A model generated the notes under the pieces. The model was not told the DNA's origin, ran no database searches, and saw only the letters and a program-made list of their open reading frames with translations. Below, piece by piece: positions 1 to 13,484 of a stretch of 13,484 bases of DNA; the first letter of the stretch is position 1; the number at the start of each line of letters is the position of its first letter. This DNA comes from an uncultured delta proteobacterium. GTDB taxonomy: Bacteria > Myxococcota_A > Polyangia > Polyangiales > Polyangiaceae. A program made the translations under genes and the position numbers. The stretch is taken from the NCBI GenBank assembly GCA_903894755.1, contig CAITRH010000317.1, forward strand, positions 1 through 13,484. Direction: 5' to 3'.

Positions 1-184
1 CGACGGTGGGAGTAGCGTGGGAGCCGACTCCGTGTCAAGGGAACGTGTGCCCGGATGCCAACTCCAACGTCTCTGGGAAGTGCACTGTTGGATGGCTCCT
101 TCAAGCACGAACTTTCATGGCCCCGAGTTTGCTGCAGTCAAGGCATTGGCTAGCGTCTACGGATTGGGAGCCACGGATTGGATT

Positions 185-192
185 AAGGAGGA
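185..192 (+). promoter_or_regulatory. Shine-Dalgarno AAGGAGGA for the 196-684 ORF
   Basis: Perfect anti-SD complement 4 nt upstream of ATG 196. Confidence 0.45.
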
Positions 193-195
193 GCA

Positions 196-684
196 ATGGG
201 CCTGCACTTTATTGGGTTTACTCTGAACACTATGGAGAATCTTGGTGACCGCTTTATGCGAAGTAGACGCGAGCGGCAAAATGCAATTGGACGCATGAAG
301 CAGGAAGTCTACGATTTCCTTCAGCAGTCAGGGCGTAGGCGCGCCCAAGTACACTTGGAGCGTTGTCAGCGCGAAGGAGAGAACCGGCAAGCACGGCGTC
401 TCTTTACCAGTGAGCTCAGGGCGGGGACTCACGCACTTCTATGGCGCTTCAAGTTGTGCCGAAAGGAATTGGCGGTTGCTCGACAGAGGCCGGAATGCCG
501 CACAGTAAGTCAGGCATGGAGAAGAGTCGCTGCGTCTGTTGCGGAAACGCCCTGCGAAGTTCCTGCTATCCAAGAAACTGCCACGCCTGCGGTAAACATC
601 ACGGTACAAAGTTTTGCCATGCATGCGGCGGTGCTGGAGTTCATGGGGGAAACTCTGGTCCTGATAGGAGATACCGAGCAATGA
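196..684 (+). CDS. Hypothetical Arg-rich small protein (162 aa), translationally coupled to the downstream Get3/ArsA-like ATPase
   Basis: ORF in track. A strong Shine-Dalgarno AAGGAGGA (185-192) lies just upstream of ATG 196. Its TGA (682-684) overlaps the downstream ATG 681 as ATGA. No recognisable family motifs, and GC3 is modest (about 54%). Confidence 0.4.
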   Translation: MGLHFIGFTLNTMENLGDRFMRSRRERQNAIGRMKQEVYDFLQQSGRRRAQVHLERCQREGENRQARRLFTSELRAGTHALLWRFKLCRKELAVARQRPECRTVSQAWRRVAASVAETPCEVPAIQETATPAVNITVQSFAMHAAVLEFMGETLVLIGDTEQ

Positions 685-2600
685 TCGCTTCCAGACCCAG
701 CTTTCTGACCCGCCGTGACCTAAGGCTCCTTTTGGTTGGAGGAAAGGGAGGCGTGGGAAAGACAACTTGTGCAACATCCACCGCGATTTACCTTGCCCGG
801 CGTGGGCGATCGAGCAAGTTCTTACTGGTTTCAACCGACCCCGCCCACTCCGTGGCCGACAGTCTAGGAGCAACCACCCCTCCCGCCAATCTCGAGGTTC
901 TGGAGCTCGATGCGGCCCAACGTTTGGAGGACTTCAAACGGGAACACGGCGACAAGTTCAAGACAATCGCCGAGCGCGGGACCTTCTTGGATAAGGACGA
1001 TGTGGGCCAATTCCTGGACCGCTCTCTTCCAGGGATGGACGAATTGATGGCGTTTCTGGAGATCTCCAAACGCGTCGAAAGCAAAGCCTACCGATGTGTG
1101 GTGGTAGATACGGCTCCAACAGGTCACACACTGCGTCTTCTTGCGATGCCCGTTCTTTTGCGCAAGTGGCTTGGAGCGCTCGATGTTCTCTTGGCCAAGC
1201 ATCGGTATATGAAGAGCATCTTTTCCAGAAGCCCCCAACCCGATGAGATCGACACGTTTCTGACAGGCATGTTGGCCTCGGTGAAGAAGATGCAACGGCT
1301 TCTGCGCGATCCCAAGCGAGCGGTCTTTGTGCCGGTGATGCTCGCGGAGATGCTGAGCATTGACGAGACCAGCATGCTCCTTCGTGAGCTTGCACACAAG
1401 AAAGTGCCTGTATCCGATATCATTGTCAATCGCCTCTACCCTGCCAGCGACTGTCCGGTGTGCTCGGACATCCATGCGCGCCAGTTCCAAGAGCTCAAAC
1501 TATGTCTTCCTCAATTGAGCCAGTACGTCGTTTGGGCAGCTCCGCTCTATCCCGAGGAGGTGCAGGGGGTCACTTCGCTCAATACCTTCTGGAAAGATGT
1601 GGTGCGGGTCACAGCCGCAACTTCGGCTCCGTCTGGTGCGCTGGCCGACCTCCGTCCTCTTGTGGAATTCGCTCCCGAGCTCCCCTCTAAAGAAATCCAA
1701 CTTGTTCTTTTTGCAGGCAAAGGTGGGGTTGGAAAGACCACCCTCGCGTGCGCCACCGCTTTGCGCCTGGCCCAGGACCTATCGGAAAGGAGCGTTTTCC
1801 TCTTTTCAACCGATCCCGCCCACTCGCTATCGGCGTGCTGGGATAGGCATATAGGGTCACAGCCTACGTCCCTCACGCGCAGGCTTAGCGCGATGGAGAT
1901 TGACGCTCAAGCCGAGTTCAAAGAGCTGCGAAACGCATATGAAAAGGAACTAGCTCATTTCATCAAGTCGCTCTTGGGGAAAGTGGACCTCAAGTTCGAC
2001 CGAGAGGTGATGGAGAGAATTATGGATCTCTCCCCTCCCGGAATCGATGAAATTATGGCCCTCACCCTCGTCATGGACCTGCTCTCGGCAAAGAAATACG
2101 ATGTGTTTGTGTTGGACTGCGCTCCAACAGGGCATCTCATTCGCCTTCTGGAGCTTCCTCAGCTTATCGATGATTGGCTCAAGACCTTTTTTGGCCTCTT
2201 TGCAAAGTATGGACGCATCTTCAGACTTCCAAAGATCTTCCGTCGCATGACCCAAATATCCGCGCAGATCCAACAGTTGCGTAAGCTCTTCGCCGACCCG
2301 TCCCGCTCCACCATCTATGGCGTAAGCATCCTTACCGAGATGAGCTTTGAAGAAACCAAGGACCTCGTGGGCTCGGCAAAGCGACTCAACATTAGTTTGC
2401 CTGTGATCTTTCACAACCTTGCCACAGCCCCCTCCTCTTGCTCGTTGTGCAGTGCGCTCGTGCAACGAGAATCGAAACTTCGAAGTAAGTTTCTGGAGAC
2501 CTTCCCGTCCACTGCCCAGCCTCTCGTTTACCGAAGAGGCGAGCCGCGTGGACTGACCAACCTCGAAGCACTTGGTCAGGTGCTGTACCAAGAGCGGTGA
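681..2600 (+). CDS. Two-domain ArsA/Get3(TRC40)-family anion-transporting/targeting ATPase with a CXXC in each half
   Basis: Two P-loops (LLVGGKGGVGKTT and VLFAGKGGVGKTT), each followed by STDPAHS. Two DTAPTGH signature motifs (VVDTAPTGHTLRLL and VLDCAPTGHLIRLL). Get3-type CXXC after each half: CPVC at 1452-1463 and CSLC at 2439-2450. Start 681 is preferred because of SD AGGAGA (666-671) and the ATGA overlap with the upstream ORF. The track ORF begins at 441 with a Cys-rich extension. Confidence 0.85.
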   Translation: MIASRPSFLTRRDLRLLLVGGKGGVGKTTCATSTAIYLARRGRSSKFLLVSTDPAHSVADSLGATTPPANLEVLELDAAQRLEDFKREHGDKFKTIAERGTFLDKDDVGQFLDRSLPGMDELMAFLEISKRVESKAYRCVVVDTAPTGHTLRLLAMPVLLRKWLGALDVLLAKHRYMKSIFSRSPQPDEIDTFLTGMLASVKKMQRLLRDPKRAVFVPVMLAEMLSIDETSMLLRELAHKKVPVSDIIVNRLYPASDCPVCSDIHARQFQELKLCLPQLSQYVVWAAPLYPEEVQGVTSLNTFWKDVVRVTAATSAPSGALADLRPLVEFAPELPSKEIQLVLFAGKGGVGKTTLACATALRLAQDLSERSVFLFSTDPAHSLSACWDRHIGSQPTSLTRRLSAMEIDAQAEFKELRNAYEKELAHFIKSLLGKVDLKFDREVMERIMDLSPPGIDEIMALTLVMDLLSAKKYDVFVLDCAPTGHLIRLLELPQLIDDWLKTFFGLFAKYGRIFRLPKIFRRMTQISAQIQQLRKLFADPSRSTIYGVSILTEMSFEETKDLVGSAKRLNISLPVIFHNLATAPSSCSLCSALVQRESKLRSKFLETFPSTAQPLVYRRGEPRGLTNLEALGQVLYQER

Positions 2601-2685
2601 AGTTTTCTCCTACACTTCCCAACAAGGCACGCTACGCTACGGGTACATGGCCGCAGACCGCACCGACCGCACCAAGAGGGATCCC

Positions 2686-5196
2686 ATGGACGACCGCACG
2701 ATCAAACGCGACTTGGTTCTTGCCCCCAATGAATACGCCTATATGCAGGATGTCACCAAGGGCGTCATCAAAACGTACACCGGGCCCACCGTCATCAACC
2801 CCACCGCACAAGAACGCGCCGTTGTCTTCAACCAGGAGTCCAAGCGCTTCGACCCCTGTCCGCTCGAAGGGGCCGTGCAACTCTCGGCCATCGCTCCTGA
2901 AGGCTACTACATCATCCTCAAGAACCCCGCAGTCAAAGGGGACCGTCCCGCCACAGGCGGCGTGTATGCCACCCCAGACCTGGACATCGGCAAGAAGATC
3001 AACATCACCGGCCCTTGCATCTTTGCCCTCTGGCCGGGACAGATCTTCAAGCTCGTTCAAGGCCATCATCTGCGCTCGAACCAGTACTTGTTGGTCCGCG
3101 TCTACAATGAGGAAGAGGCGCGCAAAAACTGGGGCAAAGCCATCATCAAACCCGCATCGCCCGATACCTCCGCAGAAAGCTACGTCATCAACGCCCCCCC
3201 CTCGGACCTGAGCGTTGGCAAGCTCTTTATCATCAAAGGAACCGACGTCTCCTTCTATATCCCTCCCACCGGCGTTGGCGTTGTGCCCGACGAGCAGCGG
3301 TTGTATGTCCGTGACGCGCTCACCCTCGAACGCCTCGAATATTGCATCCTGGTCGAGCAGAACGGCAAAAAACGCTACGAACGCGGTCCACAGGTCGTGT
3401 TCCCCCAACCTACAGAGTCCTTCATCGTTCGCGACGCTCAACGTAAGTTCCGAGCGCTGGAGCTCAACGAAATCCAAGGACTCCACATCAAAGTGATCGC
3501 CCCCTACGAAGAGGCTGGACGCACCTTCAAAGAGGGAGACGAGATCTTTATCACTGGAAAAGAAACTGCAATCTACTTCCCCCGCGAGGAACACTCGTTG
3601 GTCCGCTACGATGGACGAGACAAACACTTCGCTGTCGCCGTACCAGCTGGGGAAGCGCGCTACGTCATGAACCGCAAGGCCGGCGACATCCGCATGATCC
3701 GCGGGCCTGCCATGTTGCTCCCCAACCCTGTGGAAGAAGTCATTGTCCGCCGTATCCTGTCGGACAAAGAATGCTCTACCTGGTACCCAGGCAACGACGA
3801 GGCCCTGGCCTACAATCGAAGCCTTCGTCAGCTCGCCGTGGTCACCCCCACCACCAGGTCTGGAGTGGTCTCCGAGGGGGACGTGGAGCGCAGTCGAAAG
3901 CGGGATGCCAAGGGCCATCATCAGGCGGGTCCAGTGACCATGGAGGCCAGTTTCGTCTCTCGTGACAGTACAGCCATGATGGGGGATGTCGTCGAGCGCG
4001 GTTCGAACTTCACCCAGCCGCGGACCCTTGTGTTCAACACCAAGTTTGAGGGCGTCCCCAACCTGTGCATCTGGGTCGGCTATGCAATGATGGTCGTGGA
4101 CAAGAAGGGGAGCCGAAGGGTCGAGCAGGGGCCCAAGAGCATTCTCCTCGAATACGATGAGGCTTTGGAAATCATCCACCTTTCCAAGGGACTTCCCAAG
4201 TCGTCGCAACAGCGCATACAAACCGTGTTTCTGCGTGTGCTCAACAACAAAGTGAGCGATATCTGTGAGGTCGAGACCGTCGACCACGTCCGCGTGAAGC
4301 TCACCTACTCGCTCCGCGTCAGCTTCGATGGAGACCCAAACCGTTGGTTCGAGGTCGAGAACTATGTGCAGTACCTGTGCGATCATATCCGCTCGGTGCT
4401 CAAGGGGACCACAAAGAGAACCACCATCGAGGCCTTCTACGCCAGCGCAGTCGACATCGTACGCGATACCATCCTAGGCAAGGCGCAAGACAAAGGGGAA
4501 CGTCCCGGTATGCGCTTCGCTGAGAACGGCATGCATGTGACCGATGTCGAGCTGCTTGATGTTGCCATTGGTGACGAGCGCATCGCAACGCTTCTCAACC
4601 AAGCGCAACACGAGGTGGTGCAGAGCAACATTGGGCTTCTTCGGGCAGGACGGAACCTAGAGGTCGTCAAGAAACAGGAGGACCTCCAACGGCAGGAGGC
4701 GGAGGCAAAGGCAATCACCACCAAGAGGAAAGCCGAGCTCGAGATGGACGACATTGGCGCGAAGCTTCAAGTGGAGCTCACGCGCATTGGAGCCGAGATC
4801 AAGCAACAGGAGCTCGCCGAGGGGGCCGCAAAGGCAAGGAACCTCGCGCTCGACGTGGATCACCAAGCAAAACTGTACCGAGCGCGTCTCACCGAAGGCC
4901 AACGTCAGGAAATGGAGACCAAGGATCAAACGTTGCGTCTCGAGGGGCTACGTGTCGAGGCGGAGACCATGGTGGAGCGGTTCGAGGCTGCGCAGGGGGG
5001 CTTCTCCGAGGCGTTATTGGCGCTCTCCAACCAGGAGACGTTGGTAAAGGTGGCCCAAGCCATGAGTGTACAGAGCTTCATTGGCGGCAAGACCCTAACC
5101 GACGTGATCGACAAGATCTTTGCCAATACGCCGCTGCAGGCAGTGGTCGAGACGGTCAAGGCCAAAGCAAGCCTTCCCGAGAAGCCTGCGAAGTAG
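2686..5196 (+). CDS. Major vault protein (MVP) homologue, full length (837 aa): N-terminal MVP repeats, shoulder, cap-helix coiled coil and cap-ring
   Basis: The N-terminus IKRDLVLAPNEYAYMQDVTKG..GP..ERVVF repeats the pattern of MVP repeat 1 (IIRIPPYHYIHVLDQN..GP..ERVLF), recurring at about a 50-55 aa period. The shoulder region (VETVDHVRVKLTYSLRVSF, VENYVQYLCDHIRSVLKGTTKRTTIEAFY) aligns with vertebrate MVP ([50 protein letters not shown]). A long Glu/Ala/Lys/Arg coiled coil and a terminal LTDVIDKIFAN follow, similar to MVP's ITDGSTPINLFNTA. GC3 is high. Start ATG 2686 has SD AAGAGGG (2674-2680); alternative in-frame starts are 2572 and 2647. Confidence 0.8.
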   Translation: MDDRTIKRDLVLAPNEYAYMQDVTKGVIKTYTGPTVINPTAQERAVVFNQESKRFDPCPLEGAVQLSAIAPEGYYIILKNPAVKGDRPATGGVYATPDLDIGKKINITGPCIFALWPGQIFKLVQGHHLRSNQYLLVRVYNEEEARKNWGKAIIKPASPDTSAESYVINAPPSDLSVGKLFIIKGTDVSFYIPPTGVGVVPDEQRLYVRDALTLERLEYCILVEQNGKKRYERGPQVVFPQPTESFIVRDAQRKFRALELNEIQGLHIKVIAPYEEAGRTFKEGDEIFITGKETAIYFPREEHSLVRYDGRDKHFAVAVPAGEARYVMNRKAGDIRMIRGPAMLLPNPVEEVIVRRILSDKECSTWYPGNDEALAYNRSLRQLAVVTPTTRSGVVSEGDVERSRKRDAKGHHQAGPVTMEASFVSRDSTAMMGDVVERGSNFTQPRTLVFNTKFEGVPNLCIWVGYAMMVVDKKGSRRVEQGPKSILLEYDEALEIIHLSKGLPKSSQQRIQTVFLRVLNNKVSDICEVETVDHVRVKLTYSLRVSFDGDPNRWFEVENYVQYLCDHIRSVLKGTTKRTTIEAFYASAVDIVRDTILGKAQDKGERPGMRFAENGMHVTDVELLDVAIGDERIATLLNQAQHEVVQSNIGLLRAGRNLEVVKKQEDLQRQEAEAKAITTKRKAELEMDDIGAKLQVELTRIGAEIKQQELAEGAAKARNLALDVDHQAKLYRARLTEGQRQEMETKDQTLRLEGLRVEAETMVERFEAAQGGFSEALLALSNQETLVKVAQAMSVQSFIGGKTLTDVIDKIFANTPLQAVVETVKAKASLPEKPAK

Positions 5197-5219
5197 ACGG
5201 CCCGATAGCCCGGCATCCC

Positions 5220-6389
5220 ATGCGCTTTGTCCATACAAGCGATTGGCACGCAGGACGGGTCTGGCGTGGGCTGTCGCGGCTGGCTGAACTGGAACGCGTT
5301 CTCGACCACCTTGCGCAGTACCTGGAGCGCGAACGCGTCGATCTTCTGCTGGTCACGGGTGACGTCTTCGACAACGGTGCACCGTCCGCTGAAGCCGAAC
5401 GCGTTGTGTTCCAGTTCTTCTGTCGCGTTGGCCGCGCTCGCATACCCAGCGTGGTCATTGCTGGCAATCACGACAGTCCATCACGCATGGAGGCTTGGGG
5501 AGCACTCGCCGAGCTCGTGTCGGTCCATGCCATCGCTCGTCCGCGCGGGCCTGACCAGGGGGGAGTCCTCGAGCTCACCACGAGGTCCAATGAAAAAGTT
5601 CTCGTAGCGGCTCTCCCCTTTGCCAGCGCGGGGGCTTTTGTCTCCGCAACAGCGCTTGCCGAGGACGATACACGGGCTCGTCGGTCCTATTGCATGGGGC
5701 TTGCCCAGCTGTCGCAGCAGTTGAGCGCGCGGTTTCGGGACGACGCTGTCAACTTGTTTCTTGCCCATACCCATCTGGATGGCGCTCGGCTTAGCGAATC
5801 CGAGCGTGAAGTGCATGTGACAGACGCGTGGACTGCATTGCCTTCCGCCTTTCCAGCATCCGCAACCTACGTAGCGCTAGGACACCTGCACCGTCCCCAG
5901 CGCATGGACTCGGTGGCCTCACCTGCCTACTACGCAGGGTCGCCGATGCAACTTGACTTCGGCGAGGTGGGGGATGTCAAGTCGTTTGTCGTGGTGGAAG
6001 CCGCTGCAGGGAAGGCCCCGCTCATCGAGCTTGTACGCTACGAAGGGGCGCGGGGGCTTCGCGACGTGCGTGCAACGCTTTCGGAGCTCGAGGGGTTGGC
6101 TCCAACGTTGGGCGACTTGTGGCTTCGAGTGCGGGTTCCTCTGGAACGTCGCGACCCTGATCTTTCTGCAAAGGTCCGGCTGCTTCTCCCCAATGCCATT
6201 GTCATTCAAGACGAGCTTGCTCCGGGGGGGGCTACAAAGATAGAAGACGCTGCGCAGCCTCCGTCGGGTCTGGTAGCAGGGGGAGGATTTGCGGCGTATT
6301 TTCTTGAGGCCCATGGGTGTCCCGCAGACCAGGAGCTGCTGGCCGAGTTCGAGGCGTTGAGGCTCCGTACGCTGGCGGAGGAGCCATGA
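5220..6389 (+). CDS. sbcD: SbcD (Mre11-family) dsDNA exonuclease/hairpin endonuclease subunit
   Basis: All calcineurin-like phosphoesterase motifs are intact: HTSDWHAG, VTGDVFDNG, IAGNHDSP, FLAHTHLDGA, ALGHLHRP. Starts 23 bp after the MVP stop. Its stop overlaps the sbcC start (ATGA at 6386-6389). Confidence 0.9.
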   Translation: MRFVHTSDWHAGRVWRGLSRLAELERVLDHLAQYLERERVDLLLVTGDVFDNGAPSAEAERVVFQFFCRVGRARIPSVVIAGNHDSPSRMEAWGALAELVSVHAIARPRGPDQGGVLELTTRSNEKVLVAALPFASAGAFVSATALAEDDTRARRSYCMGLAQLSQQLSARFRDDAVNLFLAHTHLDGARLSESEREVHVTDAWTALPSAFPASATYVALGHLHRPQRMDSVASPAYYAGSPMQLDFGEVGDVKSFVVVEAAAGKAPLIELVRYEGARGLRDVRATLSELEGLAPTLGDLWLRVRVPLERRDPDLSAKVRLLLPNAIVIQDELAPGGATKIEDAAQPPSGLVAGGGFAAYFLEAHGCPADQELLAEFEALRLRTLAEEP

Positions 6390-9300
6390 GACCCCTCGAA
6401 ATTGCCTTGTCTGGATTCACCTGCTTCAAGCAAGAGACGGTCATTTCACTGCGCGACCTGGACGTGTTCACCATTGCAGGAACCACGGGAGCAGGCAAGA
6501 CGAGCCTCCTCGACGCCATGTTGTTCGCGCTCTTCGGCCGTGTCCCCAGGGTGGGACGTAGTTGTGCGGACCTGATCTCCTCGGGACTTGACCGCATGTC
6601 CGTGCGTCTTGCGTTCCGCATGGGCGACAAAGAGTTTACAGTGTCGCGTATCCTGCGACGTGGTCGCGCTGCAATCGCGCAGCTCGACGACGCCAACGGC
6701 GCTGTCGCAAACGGCGTGCGCGAGGTTGACGACGCTATCGAGCGTCTTGTTGGCATGCCTTTCGACACCTTTGTGCAGGCCGCAGTGCTCCCCCAAGGGG
6801 AGTTCGCCCGATTCCTGAAGAGCACACAGTCCAACAGGACAAAAATCCTTCGCGACCTTCTCCGAGTCGAGGTCTACGAGCGGATGCGATTGGTTGCAGT
6901 CGCGTCGGAGCAGGCGCTCGCCAAGACCCTTACGTTTACCGACAATTTGCTCGCCACGGACTTCGCCGGGGCCACCCCGGAAGCCATGACCGCGCTGTCT
7001 CAGGAGTTCTCCCGTTGCATCGAGGGGAATGAGGCGCGGGCGGAACGTTCCCTCGAGGTGCGTTCCAAAGCATCCGAGCTGCGTACACTGTTTGAGAAGG
7101 GGGTGACCCTCGACAAGCTGCAAGCCGAGCGTGTGGCTCTCGAGGCCGAGCGCTCCCTGGCCGAGCGGGCCGCAACCGAGTGCGATGCTGCCGAACGGGC
7201 TCTGCGTGTGGAGCCGCTCCTGCGAGCGGTGGATGAAGCGGCCGTGGCTTTTGCCCTTCGTGAACAAGGTCGTCTCGCTAGGGGGGCGGCAGTAGGGCAA
7301 GCCGAGGTGATCCTTGGAAAGTGCCAGGCCGACTTCGAGCAAGCCAGCCATGCTGCTGAGGCTCTCCCGGGGCTTCGGGCTCGTTGCAGCGCCCTCGATG
7401 CTGTAATTGGTGTACTCGCTCCGTTGGCTTCCGAGCGTCGATCGCTCGAAGGTCTCAGGAAACGGCAGGGAAAACTGGTCGAGGAACTGGACCTACTGAG
7501 CCGAGAGCTTGCAGTGCTCGATGCACGTTGCCGTTCCGCGGAGCAGGCGTCGGCAGTCGCTCGAGCGCGGGTCACGGGGTGCGGCTACGATCCTCAGAGC
7601 ACGGAGCGTCTCGAGGCGCTTCGCCCCGCAGTGGAGCGTCTCGGGGAGCTTCGACGTGAGCTGTCCGGGGTCCAGACGGAAGCTGCAAGGGGAGAAGCCT
7701 CCGTGACCTCCAGGACTGGGGCAGTAGCCGAGGCAAGACATGGGTTGGAGGCCGCGCTGTTGGCGCATCAGGAAGCTGAAAAGGGGGCCGCACGGGCGGT
7801 TTCCGAGGTCGACGCTGGGACCCGTGTGGATCACGCGAGGGCGCTTGCAACGAGCCTGGTGGTTGGTCAGTCCTGTCCGGTCTGTGCGCAAACAGTCCTT
7901 GCGGTTCCAACGGTGCCCGAGGCTGTCGACAAAGGGGCGCTTGTCGAGCGTCGTCACCGAGCTGTCGCAGAGGAGCGGAAGGCGTTCGAGCTGCGTTTGA
8001 AGAAGCAGGCTGCACTTGGCGAGGCCGAAAGGCGGCTTGCGGAGGCGAAGGAGACGACTGCGGCGCTAGGCGGACATCGTGTGACCCTAGAGGCCGGACT
8101 GCGGGCCGCAGAAGCGAGCCTCGAGGAGCTTTCGCGTGGCCTTGTTTCTGCTGCTACGGGGACTGTAGAAGCGCGGGTTCTTGCTGCGCTCACCCGTGCC
8201 ATGGCGATGCGACGGGCTTATGACGAAGCGGTTGCAGAGCAACGTCGCGCGGACGACTCCTTGGCTCAGGGGCGCAGCGCCGTGGATGGCAGGAAGCACG
8301 GGGTGGCTGCCCTCGAGGCCCAGCGGAGCACGTTGGATGCACAGGCAGCGGCGGTCCAGCAGACCGTTGCCAGTTGGGAGCAGCAACTGCGGGCCGTGAC
8401 AGAGCATCCGGATCCTCGGCGTGAGCGACGGGAGCTTGGGGAGCGGATCGAGGGGCTTGAGGCGGCGTTGCATCAGGCGCGTAGCTCCTCTGAGCCCGCG
8501 CAGGCTGCTGCGAGCCATGCGAGGAGCCTCCTCGAGCTTGCGCTGAAGGAGGCGCTGGTTGCAGAGGCCAACGTCATCGAGGCGAGGCGAGCGGGCGAGG
8601 CTGCTGCGCTGGCGCATGGCTTTCTTTCGCTGGACCAGACGCGCGATGCTGTGAGAACTCCTACGGACTTGCAGCGACTTAGGACCACAGTGTCGTCGTT
8701 TGAACGTCGCGCCCATGCGCTGGACGGTCAGATGTCCGGGCTCGCTCTCGAGCTCGGGGACCGTCGGGTTGATGCTGCAACGCTCAGGGAGGTGGAGTCC
8801 GAGCTGGCGGAGCTGTTGGCGCTGCACGACAGCGAGAGGAAGCGCGAAGGGGGGCTTGCTGCGGAGCTTTTGGCGATGGCGCGTCGAGTCGATCGGGCAG
8901 CGGCGCTTCGTGCCGAGCACGCGATCCAGACGCGGTCGCGCGGCATATTGCATCAATTGGCTGACAACCTAGGGACCACGAAGTTCCAGCAGTACATGTT
9001 GCGGGAGACGCTGTCGGACCTGGTGGCGCGCGCGAGCACGCGGCTTTACCGGTTGTCGACGGAGCGTTACACACTGGAGCTGCGCGATGACGACTTCTTC
9101 GTAGTGGATCACGACAATGCCGAGGAGCGTCGTCCAGCGACCACGTTGAGCGGGGGCGAGACGTTTCTTGCGTCCTTGGCGCTGGCACTTGAGTTGTCCG
9201 AGCAGGTGCAGCGAGCGGCGGGGGCGATACGGCTCGACAGTTTGTTTATCGATGAGGGGTTTGCGAGTCTGGATCACGAGTTCCTCGATGCAGCGGCGGA

Positions 9301-9436
9301 GGCGATCGAGTCCTTGGAGCTTGGGGGGCGGATGGTGGGGGTGGTGACGCATTTGACTGCGCTTACGGAGCGTTTACCGGCGCGTCTATTGGTTACGAAG
9401 CATGCGGACGGCTCGCGGGTCACCAGGCAGCTTTGA
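6386..9436 (+). CDS. sbcC: SbcC (Rad50-family) SMC-like ATPase subunit
   Basis: Walker A GTTGAGKTSLLDAM. Q-loop LPQGEF. Long Ala/Arg/Glu coiled coil with a central CPVC zinc hook (7874-7885). Signature LSGGETFLASLALAL, Walker B/D-loop LFIDEGFASLD and H-loop VGVVTH. The preferred start ATG 6386 gives the N-terminus MRPLEIALSGF, typical of SbcC, with GGCGGAGGAG SD upstream. The track ORF starts at 6317 inside sbcD. Confidence 0.9.
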   Translation: MRPLEIALSGFTCFKQETVISLRDLDVFTIAGTTGAGKTSLLDAMLFALFGRVPRVGRSCADLISSGLDRMSVRLAFRMGDKEFTVSRILRRGRAAIAQLDDANGAVANGVREVDDAIERLVGMPFDTFVQAAVLPQGEFARFLKSTQSNRTKILRDLLRVEVYERMRLVAVASEQALAKTLTFTDNLLATDFAGATPEAMTALSQEFSRCIEGNEARAERSLEVRSKASELRTLFEKGVTLDKLQAERVALEAERSLAERAATECDAAERALRVEPLLRAVDEAAVAFALREQGRLARGAAVGQAEVILGKCQADFEQASHAAEALPGLRARCSALDAVIGVLAPLASERRSLEGLRKRQGKLVEELDLLSRELAVLDARCRSAEQASAVARARVTGCGYDPQSTERLEALRPAVERLGELRRELSGVQTEAARGEASVTSRTGAVAEARHGLEAALLAHQEAEKGAARAVSEVDAGTRVDHARALATSLVVGQSCPVCAQTVLAVPTVPEAVDKGALVERRHRAVAEERKAFELRLKKQAALGEAERRLAEAKETTAALGGHRVTLEAGLRAAEASLEELSRGLVSAATGTVEARVLAALTRAMAMRRAYDEAVAEQRRADDSLAQGRSAVDGRKHGVAALEAQRSTLDAQAAAVQQTVASWEQQLRAVTEHPDPRRERRELGERIEGLEAALHQARSSSEPAQAAASHARSLLELALKEALVAEANVIEARRAGEAAALAHGFLSLDQTRDAVRTPTDLQRLRTTVSSFERRAHALDGQMSGLALELGDRRVDAATLREVESELAELLALHDSERKREGGLAAELLAMARRVDRAAALRAEHAIQTRSRGILHQLADNLGTTKFQQYMLRETLSDLVARASTRLYRLSTERYTLELRDDDFFVVDHDNAEERRPATTLSGGETFLASLALALELSEQVQRAAGAIRLDSLFIDEGFASLDHEFLDAAAEAIESLELGGRMVGVVTHLTALTERLPARLLVTKHADGSRVTRQL

Positions 9437-9465
9437 CGCTGCAAAGGAAAAACAACTGGGTAGCG

Positions 9466-9490
9466 GGGATCGCGGTCGGCCCCCCCGGAA
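9466..9490. terminator. Weak candidate bidirectional terminator hairpin between convergent sbcC and the lipoprotein gene
   Basis: cggccc ... gggccg are 6-bp inverted complements around a C-rich loop in the 55-bp convergent gap. The loop is long and no T-tract is present, so this is weak. Confidence 0.2.
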
Positions 9491-9491
9491 C

Positions 9492-11426
9492 TTAGCGGGC
9501 CGTTAATGGAAGGGGCTCTTCGATCTTGATCTCGCGAATGGCTTCGCGGAAACGTACCTCGAGCTCGGTCAGCTTCATGTTGTTTTCCACCGATTGCTTC
9601 GTGAGCTCGTCGAGACGCGCCACGATCTCAGTGAGACGCGCAGTCAAACGGCGCCGGAGCGCATCGGCGTCGCGGTTCTTCTCAATGGCCTTGAGGTTGC
9701 GACGGGTCTCTTCAGAGGCGGTGCTGAGATCGTGCTTCTCCCGCTCCAACTTGAGACGCACTTCCCGCTTCTGAACAATCTCGTTGCGCAACGCCCAGGC
9801 CGCCGTCAGCTTGGCCACCGTAGCCGTGGGCGCGCGAGGATCGGCGAGGTACGCTTTGACCGCGTTGTTGGCAATTGGAGAAAACCAGTCTTCCCAACGT
9901 CGCACTGTCGCGCGCTCGTCGACAATGAGCTCGCCCGTCGTGTTCGGCGCCACCACCGTAGGGACCAGTGCGGTGCCTGTCCCCACGTTGTCTTCTGTCT
10001 CCTTGGGCGCTTCGAAAAGACGGGTGTCGCTCTGACGCGGATGTTTCACCAGCAGCTTGATGGGACGCTCTGTGCCGTTTCGAAGGCGATAGGTGGTCCT
10101 CAAGACTGCGTCGCGTTCGATCCAAAGCTGGCCGTTCTCGATCTTTGCCACCCGCTCGCCGGTTTCATCCGACTTTTGCTGATGGTCGACAGCGATGGCG
10201 CGCTCGAGTGCAAAGGGGACCGTCGCCGTTGCGCCCGCAGGGAGCGGGTCGACCATGCCTTGTCCTAGGAAAGACCCGTCCTCGAACACCGCAATGGGAC
10301 CGCGTTCGAGCATGCCTGCAGTGGCGTTGCGAAACCGTGCAACGCGGAACGGGTGGCTGCGGGAGTCGGGCACTCCACCGTCCGGCGCATAGAGGAAATT
10401 GGCCTCGCCAGGGACTTTCCGAGAAAGCATCATCACCATGGTGGCGCTCTGGTCCGGGATCGTCAGCGGCACTGGAAGATCGTAGCGGGTCGTTCCCCCT
10501 TCGACGGCCACGGCAGCAAGGGCGCGCACATCGCGAGGACCGGACGGGACAATGCGTGCGGACGGCGCGGGAGGCGGAGGAGGAGGAGGAGGAGCAGAAG
10601 GAAACATCATCCGAGGGGCAGGCACGCGAGCGGCTCTTCCCATGCCACCTCGTGTCCTGCCGCTAGGGGCTTCGGCGGCGGACTTTGGGCTGTCTTCTTC
10701 GTCGCTGTCGCGTGCCACCGCGGCGGGACTTGGCGCGGGCTCGGCAGGCGGTTCTTGACGAAGCGAGGTTTCGGAACGCGGGACCACGGCCAAGACCTCC
10801 CCCAAGTCGGTGATCACGGGACGTACTGGGACTACAGGCACGCCCAGTTGCGCCTCGAAGGCCAGCGGGGCACCAGCTACGAGCGACAACCGAACATTTT
10901 TCCAGTCCTCTCCAGAGAGATTTTGGACAATGCCCCAGGCCTGGAGGTCGGCTTCCCCCGTGCGATGCACGACCAGTCGATACGAGGGGCGCCAGACAGG
11001 GCATTCGGCGACGTAGCCGACCTGTAGGTCATGTTTCTTGCCGTCTAGAGACAGCACTATGGTCTGTAGATCGCTCTTAGGTTTGGACTCCTTGTCTTTG
11101 TCTTTGTCGTCGTCGTCAGGTTTCCTAGGACGCGGGGCTTCTTCAGGCTTGAGGGGGAATGCGGCGGAGCGCACCGAGCTTCCGCCCTGTTCCATGACGG
11201 CGAGGGTGGCAAGGAAATCGCCGACTTGTTTGCCACGCATGCGAAAGTGGACTTCGTCGGCTTCGACCTGTCCGCCGCGTTCGAAGTAGGCGATACCGTT
11301 TCGATAGATGACTACTCTTTTGAGAGGAAGATTGCTTTCGACGATGGGGCCTCGACCGCAACCCATCAAAAAGAGTCCACCGAGCAGCAGCGCTGCCCCA
11401 TTATGCTTCGTTGACCACGTACGCAT
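9492..11426 (-). CDS. Putative secreted lipoprotein, possibly DUF4140/DUF4139 (TIGR02231-like) family, with a C-terminal coiled coil and low-complexity inserts
   Basis: 644-aa ORF with an N-terminal signal peptide and lipobox-like LFLMGC. Segments resembling the DUF4140 N-terminus (RVVIYRNGIAYFERGGQV) and the DUF4139 core (TGEADLQAWGIVQNLSGEDWKNVRLSL; RGPIAVFEDGSFLGQGMV) are recalled from memory only. Acidic DDDDKDKDKE and poly-Pro PPPPPPPPAP tracts are present. The C-terminal 100 aa are predicted coiled coil. Confidence 0.55.
   Translation of the reverse strand: MRTWSTKHNGAALLLGGLFLMGCGRGPIVESNLPLKRVVIYRNGIAYFERGGQVEADEVHFRMRGKQVGDFLATLAVMEQGGSSVRSAAFPLKPEEAPRPRKPDDDDKDKDKESKPKSDLQTIVLSLDGKKHDLQVGYVAECPVWRPSYRLVVHRTGEADLQAWGIVQNLSGEDWKNVRLSLVAGAPLAFEAQLGVPVVPVRPVITDLGEVLAVVPRSETSLRQEPPAEPAPSPAAVARDSDEEDSPKSAAEAPSGRTRGGMGRAARVPAPRMMFPSAPPPPPPPPAPSARIVPSGPRDVRALAAVAVEGGTTRYDLPVPLTIPDQSATMVMMLSRKVPGEANFLYAPDGGVPDSRSHPFRVARFRNATAGMLERGPIAVFEDGSFLGQGMVDPLPAGATATVPFALERAIAVDHQQKSDETGERVAKIENGQLWIERDAVLRTTYRLRNGTERPIKLLVKHPRQSDTRLFEAPKETEDNVGTGTALVPTVVAPNTTGELIVDERATVRRWEDWFSPIANNAVKAYLADPRAPTATVAKLTAAWALRNEIVQKREVRLKLEREKHDLSTASEETRRNLKAIEKNRDADALRRRLTARLTEIVARLDELTKQSVENNMKLTELEVRFREAIREIKIEEPLPLTAR
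10570..10602. repeat. (GGA)n / (GGN)n trinucleotide microsatellite inside the lipoprotein CDS; encodes poly-Pro on the minus strand
   Basis: ggaggcggaggaggaggaggaggagcagaagga read directly. Confidence 0.8.
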
Positions 11427-11467
11427 CGAGCACCTCCGGATGCGGCGAGCATACGACCTCGCCCTGA

Positions 11468-11575
11468 GCAGCGTCGAGTACCGAACGGTGGAAACGCCCT
11501 TGTTGCGCGGTTCGGACCCGGCTCGGACCTGCGGTTTTCAAGTTTGGTTTGGTTTAGCGTGCGCATGTGGCCGGG
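11468..11575. repeat. Copy A of an imperfect direct duplication of the MCE gene promoter and 5' end, upstream of the tandem array
   Basis: gcagcgtcgag-taccgaacggtggaaacgcccttgttgcgcgg ... tagcgtgcgcatgtggccggg is about 80% identical to 11752-11826 (gcggcgttgagagtaccgaccggcggaaactcccttgtcgcgtcc ... tagcgtgcggatgtggcggcc). Copy A carries an extra 35-bp internal segment. Confidence 0.5.
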
Positions 11576-11594
11576 AGACGCGACGGGCGGACAG

Positions 11595-11722
11595 ACCCGC
11601 AGCACTTCCGAACGCACCCGCAGCACTTCCGGACGCACCCGCAGCACTTCCGGACGCACCCGCAGCACTTCCGGACGCACCCGCAGCACTTGCCGGACAG
11701 ACCCGCAGCACTTCTCGGGTGC
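11595..11722. repeat. 21-bp tandem repeat array (about 6 units, consensus ACCCGCAGCACTTCCGGACGC) in a divergent intergenic region
   Basis: Units at 11595, 11616, 11637, 11658 (four near-perfect), 11679 (22 bp, 1-nt insertion) and 11701 (degenerate). Each unit contains the palindromic TCCGGA. The array is bracketed by CGGACAG variants. Confidence 0.85.
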
Positions 11723-11751
11723 TCCCCCGGTGCGCTTCGCCATCATCTGGC

Positions 11752-11826
11752 GCGGCGTTGAGAGTACCGACCGGCGGAAACTCCCTTGTCGCGTCCGATC
11801 GCTGCTAGCGTGCGGATGTGGCGGCC
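11752..11826. repeat. Copy B of the imperfect direct duplication; includes the GTG start of the MCE gene
   Basis: See copy A. Spans the putative promoter region and the first codons of the 11818 ORF. Confidence 0.5.
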
Positions 11827-13290
11827 AAGGTCACCCATGCGGCAAAAGTAGGGCTCTTCGTGGTCCTTTCCGGAAGTGCGCTCTACGGCATCTACCGCAC
11901 GGTGAGCCGTGAGGTCGGCACCTCGTCCAGCTACACGGTCCACGGCTACGTTAAAGACGCGACCGGGCTCGCCAGCCACTCGAGGGTCACCATCGCCGGT
12001 ATCCCCGTCGGCTCCATCGACGGGATCCGTCTCGAACGCGGCCTGGCACGCATCGATGTGCGCATGCGGTCCGATACTCCCCTCTACACCAACGCGACCA
12101 TCGGCAAGCGGGCCGCGTCGCTCCTCGGAGAGAACGTCATTGTCCTGACCCCGGGCACCCCCGACACGGCCGCACTCAAGGACGGCGACGAGATCCACAC
12201 GGTCGTCGAAGAGACCTCCATGAGCCAAATCATGGAGGAGGTGAAGGAAATCGCTGACCGGGTCAAAGATGTCGCCACCCAGCTTGCCAAGTCTGTCGGC
12301 ACGGAAACCGGCGGCCAGAACATCCGGCTCATCTTGCAGAACCTGGCCGAAGCCACCGACGCCCTCAACAAGACGATCAACGAAAATAGGATCTACATCA
12401 ACACGGCGCTCAAGAACGTTGCCAGCATCACCACCCATGCGGACCCGCAGATCGCGCGAATCCTCGACAACGTGCGCGTGGTCACGGAAGACGTACGCGG
12501 GCTCACGGCCTCGGCGGGGGGCGGACGGCAATCCGGGGAGCTACGCGAAACCGTCGAGCGTATCAACCGTGCCACCAAGAGCTTGGAAAGTGCGTTAGGT
12601 CACGTCGACCGCGTTGTCGCGCGGGTGGACCGAGGCGAGGGGACCCTGGGACGACTTTCTAAGGATGACGCCTTGATCAACGAGGTCCAGGGGGCGGCCG
12701 AGGGGGTCGGCGAATTCGTCGGCGGGATTCAGCGGCTCCAGACGGTGGTGGGCCTACGCAGCGACTACAATTTCCTGGCCAACACGATCAAGAGCTACGT
12801 CGAGGTGCGTCTACAGCCACGGGAGGACAAGTATTACCTTATCGAGCTAATCAACGATCCAAGGGGTAAGACGAGTTTCTCTCAGGTTGACGTCGACACG
12901 ACCAATCCGCGCGATCCGGCGCACTACCGGACCATCATGACGACGACCACTGACGCGTTCCGCTTTTCGCTGCAGTTTGCGCGGCGCTTGGGGCCGTTTA
13001 CGGGACGGTTTGGGATCAAGGAGTCGACCGGGGGCATCGGGCTCGACATCCATCTGTTTGGCAATCGTCTCGAGGTGGTGCAGGACATCTTTGGGTTTGC
13101 CGAGGAGGTCCAGCCGCGTTACCGGATTTACTTTGGCTATGAGTTTATCAAGAGGTTGTGGCTTCTCGGAGGAGTGGACCACCTGTTTCTTGGAAACCGT
13201 CGGGACTACTTCCTGGGGCTCCAACTCCGGTTTAACGATGAAGATTTGAAGACTATCCTCCCCTTTGTGCCGACCGGAGCGGCGAAGTAG
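11818..13290 (+). CDS. MCE/MlaD-family protein (single N-terminal TM helix, MCE domain, long helical C-terminal region)
   Basis: GTG start. TM segment VGLFVVLSGSALYGIY, then the MCE-domain pattern YTVHGYVKDATGLASHSRVTIAGIPVGSIDGIRL..ARIDVRM..PLYTNATIGKRAASLLGENVIVLTPG, then about 300 aa of mainly helical sequence. Stop TAG 13288-13290. Confidence 0.8.
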   Translation: MAAKVTHAAKVGLFVVLSGSALYGIYRTVSREVGTSSSYTVHGYVKDATGLASHSRVTIAGIPVGSIDGIRLERGLARIDVRMRSDTPLYTNATIGKRAASLLGENVIVLTPGTPDTAALKDGDEIHTVVEETSMSQIMEEVKEIADRVKDVATQLAKSVGTETGGQNIRLILQNLAEATDALNKTINENRIYINTALKNVASITTHADPQIARILDNVRVVTEDVRGLTASAGGGRQSGELRETVERINRATKSLESALGHVDRVVARVDRGEGTLGRLSKDDALINEVQGAAEGVGEFVGGIQRLQTVVGLRSDYNFLANTIKSYVEVRLQPREDKYYLIELINDPRGKTSFSQVDVDTTNPRDPAHYRTIMTTTTDAFRFSLQFARRLGPFTGRFGIKESTGGIGLDIHLFGNRLEVVQDIFGFAEEVQPRYRIYFGYEFIKRLWLLGGVDHLFLGNRRDYFLGLQLRFNDEDLKTILPFVPTGAAK

Positions 13291-13320
13291 TTTCGCCGGA
13301 GCTTAAACCAACCCCATCTT

Positions 13321-13347
13321 GAAGACCGCAGGTTCGAACCGAAGACC
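13321..13347. repeat. Perfect 10-bp palindrome GGTTCGAACC flanked by direct GAAGACC repeats, just downstream of the MCE gene
   Basis: gaagacc-gca-ggttcgaacc-gaagacc read directly. Confidence 0.6.
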
Positions 13348-13358
13348 TCACCCCCCCG

Positions 13359-13484
13359 GCCCCCCTCTCCCTCGACATCTTCCTTGCCCATTCGGGCAAG
13401 GAAAATCGTCTTCGAGCGAGGGGGGAGGAGAGCCGCGGTTCCGAGCCCCCCTCTCCCTCGACATCTTCCTTGCCCATTCGGGCA
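13359..13484. repeat. Two copies (the second truncated by the window end) of an 86-bp-period repeat containing nested imperfect palindromes
   Basis: The 40-bp segment gcccccctctccctcgacatcttccttgcccattcgggca occurs at 13359-13398 and 13445-13484. The inner hairpin is ccttgccc-attc-gggcaagg (13382-13401). The outer arms ccctctccctcga / tcgagcgaggggggaggagag are imperfectly complementary. Confidence 0.7.

Follow-up and report, generated by a model that had tools for sequence, protein, structure and literature searches.

A divergent, displaced double-Get3 ATPase of a gas-vesicle-cluster family beside a bacterial MVP gene

What is the role of a two-domain ATPase of the ArsA fold whose gene stands directly upstream of a gene for a bacterial major vault protein (MVP) homolog? 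This question is raised by a stretch of 13,484 nucleotides (nt) from an uncultured delta proteobacterium of the Polyangiaceae (GenBank assembly GCA_903894755.1, contig CAITRH010000317.1, positions 1 to 13,484 of the forward strand). The whole 13.5-kb stretch was examined and is called the window below; the sequence of the contig begins 680 nt upstream of the ATPase gene. The reading that we prefer, to which we assign a probability of roughly 0.68, is that the ATPase is a single-chain Get3-like pseudo-dimer of the class that combines a double Get3 architecture with a TRC40-type insert and CxxC motifs, and that its family probably serves as a chaperone of gas-vesicle proteins (Gvp, encoded by gvp genes).

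Domain architecture and affinity of the ATPase

The open reading frame (ORF) at 681–2600 on the plus strand is free of stop codons over its 1920 nt and encodes 639 amino acids. The Pfam family ArsA_ATPase (PF02374) matches the protein twice, with an E-value of 1e-119, and with the NCBIfam model of the TRC40/GET3/ArsA subfamily (TIGR00345) it reaches 384.7 bits, for a threshold of 135. Conservation was assessed in a family alignment of 113 relatives with 54–60% identity to the window protein. The parts of the gene are as follows, with invariance referring to these 113 sequences.

681–2600, plus strand: gene of the double-domain Get3/ArsA-fold ATPase of the gas-vesicle-cluster type, with CxxC in both halves (639 amino acids; Pfam, NCBIfam)
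741–767, plus strand: P-loop of the N-half, GKGGVGKTT, residues 21–29; G21 to T28 largely invariant
831–851, plus strand: switch I of the N-half, STDPAHS, residues 51–57, which carries the catalytic Asp; S51, D53, P54, A55, and S57 invariant
1107–1127, plus strand: switch II of the N-half, DTAPTGH, residues 143–149; D143, A145, P146, and H149 invariant
1452–1463, plus strand: CXXC of the N-half, CPVC, residues 258–261, at the start of helix 259–279; aligned to CPQC of Get3 and CKMC of TRC40
1611–1697, plus strand: variable inter-domain linker, about residues 311–339; the predicted local distance difference test score (pLDDT) falls to 65 near residues 311–320
1716–1742, plus strand: P-loop of the C-half, GKGGVGKTT, residues 346–354; G346 to T354 invariant
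1806–1826, plus strand: switch I of the C-half, STDPAHS, residues 376–382 (motif scan and 113-sequence alignment)
2115–2135, plus strand: switch II of the C-half, DCAPTGH, residues 479–485 (motif scan and 113-sequence alignment)
2439–2450, plus strand: CXXC of the C-half, CSLC, residues 587–590, at the start of helix 588–607; aligned to CEFC and CSMC of Get3 proteins

A first-pass annotation of this DNA had described the product as a fused two-domain ATPase of the ArsA fold with a Get3-style CXXC in each half. This description is borne out by the reading frame, the two Pfam matches, the invariance of the motifs among the relatives, and alignments made with HMMER. It had also placed GKGGVGKTT, STDPAHS, DTAPTGH, and a CXXC in each half, which is correct for three of the four; the minor error concerns DTAPTGH, which reads DCAPTGH in the second half. 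The linker between the halves carries long insertions in some homologs (seen in P0023, P0112, P0035, and P0027).

The cysteines of the protein are located at residues 30, 139, 258, 261, 275, 357, 386, 480, 587, and 590, and those of the two CXXC motifs (C258, C261, C587, and C590) are invariant in the family alignment. With HMMER, the CXXC of the N-half aligns onto CPQC of Schizosaccharomyces pombe Get3 and CKMC of human TRC40, and the CXXC of the C-half aligns onto CEFC of Methanothermobacter thermautotrophicus Get3 and CSMC of Giardia Get3. When the halves are compared with each other, they share 30% identity, and one CXXC falls on the other in the alignment. The motifs are meaningful rather than the product of chance. 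A motif scan of the 639 residues found no CxC redox motif, and no HSP20 or ArsA_HSP20 (alpha-crystallin) domain was found in the Pfam scan of the ATPase.

The two CXXC motifs tend to occur together. Among 122 diverse tandem representatives with 27–59% identity, 85 have the motif in both halves, 30 in neither, and only seven in one half. The both-or-neither pattern thus covers 115 of the 122 proteins (odds ratio 212, uncorrected for phylogeny), and the double-negative proteins are spread over several separate clades. If both halves contributed to one four-cysteine site, coupled gain and loss of this kind would be expected. Taken together with the closed pseudo-dimer model described below, this co-occurrence makes it likely that both CXXC pairs contribute to one intramolecular Zn(Cys)4 site.

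The wider tandem family includes large clades that carry CXXC in neither half, and at least six separate lineages have lost both motifs together. These CXXC-less clades may be equivalent to Group 7 of Farkas et al. (2019), which is cyanobacterial.

A structure of the ATPase was predicted by AlphaFold2 using the 113-sequence alignment, and the model (mean pLDDT 84.7; predicted template modeling score [pTM] 0.84) was compared with the PDB by using Foldseek. The best full-length match is the closed ArsA of Leptospirillum ferriphilum (9nbw), with a template modeling (TM) score of 0.71 when normalized to the query and 0.79 when normalized to the target. Escherichia coli ArsA and ArsA1 of Chlamydomonas reinhardtii are the next full-length matches, and single halves match Get3 chains with target-normalized TM scores of 0.67–0.84. 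The chain is therefore predicted to adopt a closed pseudo-dimer of the ArsA/Get3 type. In the model, each CXXC is located at the N-terminus of a long helix (259–279 and 588–607) that follows a strand.

The affinity of the two halves was examined by comparing HMMER scores. The N-half scores ∼140–145 bits with Get3/TRC40 and archaeal Get3 proteins versus ∼102 bits with E. coli ArsA. The result for the C-half is less clear-cut, with 130 bits for archaeal Get3, 101–105 bits for ArsA, and 93–96 bits for yeast and human Get3. The top solved relative of both halves is Chlamydomonas ArsA1 (PDB 5zme), at 191.8 and 134.4 bits. After DTAPTGH, the N-half aligns through the insert of S. pombe Get3 with a gap of four residues, and the model has a short helix at residues 172–181.

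Two equivalog models of the arsenical pump-driving ATPase ArsA are failed by a wide margin: the protein reaches 165.5 bits with TIGR04291, which requires 650, and 175 bits with NF041417, which requires 800. The metalloid-binding cysteines of ArsA are C113, C172, and C422 of the E. coli protein. No cysteine of the window protein falls within ∼10 residues of the equivalents of these positions, which were estimated as offsets from the DTAPTGH motifs with the E. coli numbering and could be shifted by insertions or deletions. A Pfam scan of the seven large ORFs in the window, which includes 680 nt upstream of the ATPase gene, found no ars operon gene (arsR, arsB/acr3, arsD, or arsC). The earlier proposal of a Get3-like pseudo-dimer made by covalent fusion, as opposed to a canonical arsenical-pump ArsA, is supported. 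The CXXC motifs occupy the zinc-ligand positions of Get3, and the model packs like closed ArsA.

Gas-vesicle clusters around the relatives

Thousands of tandem homologs of ∼640–670 amino acids exist, and the best non-self match among 5.8 billion proteins searched has 60% identity. The genomic context of these relatives is the decisive clue to the family. In five metagenome look-ups of the closest homologs, every one was located within a gas-vesicle cluster. There, gvpA is followed by the gene of an unnamed repeat protein and then by a gvpN-like AAA+ gene, small ORFs, gvpF/L, and gvpG; the ATPase gene comes next, ahead of gvpJ, gvpK, and a gvpA-like gene, and often overlaps its neighbors by a few bases.

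The association also holds on a broader scale, where the typical order is gvpF, gvpG, the ATPase, gvpJ, gvpK, and a gvpA-like gene. A scan of one genome per species yielded 62 loci of relatives with 41–61% identity, distributed among Desulfobacterota, Acidobacteriota, Nitrospinota, Calditrichota, Planctomycetota, and other phyla. In 61 of these loci, gvp genes flank the ATPase gene, and the exception is a contig of 3.2 kb. Directly upstream of the ATPase is a GvpG-like gene (54 of 55 loci), and directly downstream is a GvpJ-like gene (53 of 54). The first-pass annotation had drawn no link to gas vesicles and so lacked what is the strongest contextual clue: the family is a gas-vesicle-cluster gene family.

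The window protein belongs with these relatives. The gvp-embedded homologs listed are 55–60% identical to it, and it shares a 50%-identity cluster with them and with P0095. One of the nearest representative clusters is named Lamprobacter/Chromatiaceae. In a neighbor-joining distance tree, which is crude and carries no support values, the protein is nested on a long branch in the gvp-associated clade. Membership in the class of double-Get3 proteins with CxxC that are found in gvp clusters is thus very probable.

Several other genes recur in or near these clusters. In four of them (L001, L002, L004, and L005), there are additional genes for a double AAA+ ATPase of the CDC48 type, for a PAS histidine kinase together with a response regulator, and for a protein resembling Hsp20/GvpH. 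A gene of the Volactin family (archaeal actin-like) is located just after the gvp cluster in L005 (13691–14767) and L006.

A mechanism for the family can be proposed by analogy with the biochemistry of Get3. Both nucleotide sites are intact. The two CXXC pairs most likely coordinate a single structural Zn on the pseudo-twofold axis, where it would act as a hinge as in the Get3 homodimer. ATP binding would then close the helical subdomains and form a hydrophobic groove in which a hydrophobic client is shielded, and hydrolysis would release this client. Because nearly all relatives have the gene between gvpG and gvpJ, the client of the family is most likely one or more of the very hydrophobic Gvp proteins. 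Candidates that might be held and delivered during vesicle assembly are the aggregation-prone shell proteins of the GvpA/J/M family and GvpG with its hydrophobic N-terminus. On this basis, a gas-vesicle role for the family as a whole is somewhat more probable than not.

The atypical copy in the window

The immediate neighbors of the ATPase gene differ from those of its relatives. The features in question are as follows.

196–684, plus strand: upstream, translationally coupled ORF (ORF196), 162 amino acids, with a strong ribosome-binding site (perfect AAGGAGG) and weak similarity to a repeat protein of gvp clusters
2686–5196, plus strand: bacterial MVP homolog, 836 amino acids, with MVP_shoulder and Vault_3 domains (Pfam)

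A number of observations weigh against our preferred reading. No gvp gene was detected in the 13.5-kb window by tblastn (nothing better than chance), for which the queries were GvpA, F/L, G, J, K, and N together with two unknown proteins specific to the clusters, although only 680 nt of the contig precede the ATPase gene. ORF196 and MVP stand where the usual neighbors GvpG and GvpJ would be. At columns that are conserved in at least 90% of the family, the window protein departs from the consensus at 28 of 261 positions, compared with a family mean of seven and a maximum of 21, which could reflect an altered or relaxed function. These departures are mostly conservative (e.g., among L, I, and V), and the catalytic and cysteine positions are all intact. 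In the model, the C-half has no separate lid helix, and its insert region is ∼14 residues shorter than that of M. thermautotrophicus Get3, so the client groove may be asymmetric. In the papers searched, no experimental work was found that ties any member to gas-vesicle assembly or zinc binding. Moreover, the Myxococcus xanthus member Mxa1 has been reported to have no gvp neighbors (Castillo and Saier 2010; PMC2963123), and a role outside gas vesicles therefore exists in the wider class.

ORF196 offers a weak hint in the other direction. Neither Pfam nor NCBIfam has a family that matches it. It scores 17.1 bits (E-value 8e-5) with a profile ("c135") built from the repeat protein encoded next to gvpA, on its downstream side, in gas-vesicle clusters of this type. 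This score is reached by none of 2000 shuffled sequences, whose maximum is 10.1 bits, and the top reciprocal matches belong to that same family. The similarity weakly suggests that ORF196 and the ATPase gene derive from a gvp-type cluster. A homolog of ORF196 (P0241) with 90% identity and equal length is found in the same layout on an ENA contig of 1554 nt. The repeat protein after gvpA is apolipoprotein-like and may be an analog of GvpC. On the 1554-nt contig, a further gene ends 284 nt upstream of P0241.

The coupling of the two genes bears on where translation of the ATPase begins. The ATG at 681 is preceded, at a distance of 9 nt, by a GGAG ribosome-binding site and shares nucleotides with the stop codon of ORF196 (ATGA), and the identical 4-nt gene overlap is present on the related 1554-nt contig. 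The alignments of ATPase homologs begin at residues 2–6. The Joint Genome Institute (JGI) gene call (P0001) is a protein of 582 amino acids that begins at a GTG codon (V58), by which the first P-loop (Walker A) is lost. ATG 681 is the better start and the JGI call is a mis-start, such that automated annotation under-reports the N-terminal ATPase site.

An alternative start farther upstream was considered and is not favored. The ATPase frame is open at 441–680 (plus strand), where it would encode a Cys/His-rich segment resembling a double zinc ribbon, with three CxxCG knuckles (CVCCG..., CHACGK..., and FCHACGG). The Pfam match to DZR_2 reaches an E-value of only 0.02, and no homolog has such an extension; the homologs and the gene call on the second contig start at the equivalent of position 681. 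The segment overlaps ORF196, which is read in frame 1 and is itself kept on another contig. Between ORF196 and its 90%-identical homolog there are seven substitutions among the 37 residues within the frame overlap, versus ∼6% over residues 1–109. Either frame may be the coding one in 525–633.

Base composition was examined for signs of a foreign origin. The GC content of ORF196 and the ATPase gene is 0.55 versus 0.58–0.64 in the other genes, whereas the GC content at third codon positions (GC3) is 0.64, which is inside the range of the neighboring genes. The composition weakly hints at a foreign origin, but the shift is modest. This copy is a divergent but intact member of its family that is set apart from recognizable gvp genes and accompanied only by the weakly gvp-cluster-like ORF196, and a gas-vesicle role in this particular organism is doubtful.

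The neighboring MVP gene invited the proposal in the first-pass annotation that the ATPase is a vault cargo or assembly factor. Both genes have the same orientation, with 85 nt between them, and no promoter or terminator signal was found between them. Many relatives of the MVP homolog have 63–73% identity to it, and most are listed without a taxon name. Those that are named are Myxococcota metagenome-assembled genomes (Nannocystaceae, Kofleriaceae, and Myxococcales) or bear generic delta-proteobacterial or proteobacterial labels, and judged by this neighbor the contig looks Myxococcota-like; the existence of bacterial MVP homologs in Myxococcales has already been mentioned in a preprint. We surveyed three MVP neighborhoods by look-up and 56 more by a metagenome scan; together these provide 58 loci with an MVP match, and in 34 of them the upstream sequence is 2 kb or longer. 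The three looked-up neighborhoods differ from one another and all lack the ATPase. None of the 58 loci (including the 34 with upstream sequence) carries a relative of the ATPase, of ORF196, or of SbcCD, or any gvp gene. Conversely, none of the 62 loci of ATPase relatives carries MVP. In Pfam, the ATPase has ArsA-fold domains only, with no homology to the vault partners vPARP and TEP1. The adjacency is specific to this contig and represents a local rearrangement rather than a functional pairing, and the vault proposal finds no support in either set of loci.

Other features near the MVP gene were also recorded. Because the MVP neighborhood differs in every genome inspected, its context offers no clue to MVP function. 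Genes for an SbcD-like protein (Metallophos) and an SbcC-like protein (AAA_23/SbcC_Walker_B, 1039 amino acids) directly follow MVP at 5220–9436 (plus strand) and overlap each other. Such genes are beside MVP in none of the 58 other loci, and PADLOC gives them generic SMC/ABC-type matches only. The PADLOC defense scan yielded only P-loop-level matches. A tandem repeat of 21 bp (six copies, 92% matches) is located at 11588–11714, between a DUF4139 gene on the minus strand and a gene with an MlaD domain.

Several explanations other than the preferred one must be weighed. The protein could have nothing to do with gas vesicles and act as a stand-alone Get3-like holdase or targeting ATPase for membrane proteins, serving tail-anchored proteins or other hydrophobic ones in general. 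All Get3-like features are retained, the window is devoid of gvp genes as is the published neighborhood of Mxa1, and predicted tail-anchored proteins tend to be more numerous in bacteria with double-domain Get3 homologs, whose function is unknown (Farkas et al. 2019; PMC6593721). Against this, the protein nests inside the gvp-embedded clade rather than forming a lineage of its own. In addition, the class to which it belongs lacks the Get1/2/4-binding residues and CxC (Farkas et al. 2019), the latter absence being confirmed here; no gene for a Get1/2-like receptor or a client was found nearby in the Pfam scan of the window ORFs, and ORF196 weakly resembles a protein of gvp clusters. We therefore regard a general chaperone as unlikely. 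Another candidate is a stranded remnant: after transfer or rearrangement, a fragment of a gvp cluster (ORF196 and the ATPase gene) would have been left without its partners and would now be drifting without function. The missing canonical neighbors, the largest number of departures from consensus among the 113 sequences, the long branch with no relative above 60% identity, and the lower GC content speak for such a remnant. Against it, the frame is uninterrupted, every catalytic motif and all four zinc-type cysteines are retained, and most of the departures are conservative. The ORF196–ATPase pair is also kept on a second contig with 90% protein identity, and the GC3 is typical of the neighborhood. 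We consider such a remnant improbable.

A vault-related factor that assembles, loads, or is packaged by the neighboring MVP would fit the close spacing of the two genes on one strand with no terminator-like site between them, but the pairing recurs in none of the 58 MVP loci or the 62 loci of relatives, and MVP neighborhoods vary across every Myxococcota genome inspected; we consider this explanation very improbable. The same very low standing applies to a variant in which a gvp-type fused Get3 chaperone was captured by a Myxococcota lineage and re-purposed for assembly of an MVP shell or vault-like shell, by holding or delivering MVP or a hydrophobic cargo. If true, it would link two protein-shelled compartments via a shared assembly ATPase. 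Least probable of all, and close to negligible, is a canonical arsenite-efflux ATPase. The fold and two-domain layout are those of ArsA, which is also the best full-length structural match, and source annotations label the family "arsenite-transporting ATPase." This label is contradicted by the equivalog scores, by the lack of cysteines near the estimated metalloid-ligand positions (Castillo and Saier [2010] report the same for the proteins of gvp clusters), by the absence of ars genes from the window, and by the location of the relatives in gvp clusters.

Comparison with known systems

The novelty implied by the first-pass annotation does not hold, since both parts of the picture have been published. 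Castillo and Saier (2010; PMC2963123) described two-domain ArsA homologs of ∼640 amino acids in gvp operons (their clusters 4 and 6), noted that these lack the ArsA cysteines, and proposed that they energize a step in gas-vesicle biogenesis; CXXC is not mentioned. In Table 1 of Farkas et al. (2019, Traffic; PMC6593721), Group 8 comprises double Get3 proteins of Myxococcales and some Proteobacteria with a TRC40 insert and groove and with CxxC, without an alpha-crystallin domain or CxC, and with "No" entered for Get1/2/4-binding residues. That group is called "unique in all domains of life," its function is given as unknown, and gas vesicles are not mentioned. Our literature search found no paper in which "Get3" and "gas vesicle" occur together, nor any experimental work on the family, and the two published observations have apparently not been joined before.

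For the locus itself, little changes: it carries a divergent, displaced copy of a published, uncharacterized class, and the link with vaults fails. At the level of the family, our survey shows that the clade of double-Get3 proteins with CxxC is almost always encoded between gvpG and gvpJ. This placement leads to a testable hypothesis, namely that a Get3-like ATPase chaperones the extremely hydrophobic shell proteins of gas vesicles. Such a function would bear on the nucleation of gas vesicles and on their engineering as acoustic reporters.

The window protein can be compared with five known systems. ArsA (E. coli R773; L. ferriphilum 9nbw) has the same two-domain pseudo-dimer and closed-state fold. 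Unlike ArsA, the window protein fails the equivalog models, has no cysteine near the estimated metalloid-ligand positions, has no ars genes beside it in the window, and has CXXC motifs and a longer helical insert.

Chlamydomonas ArsA1 is a fused two-domain Get3 homolog that serves tail-anchored proteins of the chloroplast. Like the window protein it is a single-chain pseudo-dimer, and it is the best-scoring solved sequence for both halves, but it has no cysteines at the aligned CXXC positions. The full-length superposition on 5zme is poor (root-mean-square deviation 16 Å, TM 0.58), which is consistent with a different open or closed state.

With Get3/TRC40, the protein shares the fold, the deviant Walker A, switches I and II, and a CXXC at the same alignment position, in keeping with the per-domain TM scores given above. 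Get3 is a single-domain homodimer with an intermolecular Zn, whereas here the two domains are fused. We know of no GET-pathway partners in bacteria.

The gvp-operon homologs of Castillo and Saier resemble the protein in length, in their two domains, and in the absence of ArsA metalloid cysteines, and the protein nests in the gvpG–gvpJ clade. The difference is the lack of gvp neighbors in 13.5 kb, which is the published situation of Mxa1 as well. From Group 8 of Farkas et al., there is no architectural difference: both have two Get3 domains per chain and CxxC, with a putative TRC40-type insert and groove region in the window protein, both lack alpha-crystallin and CxC, and both are cytoplasmic.

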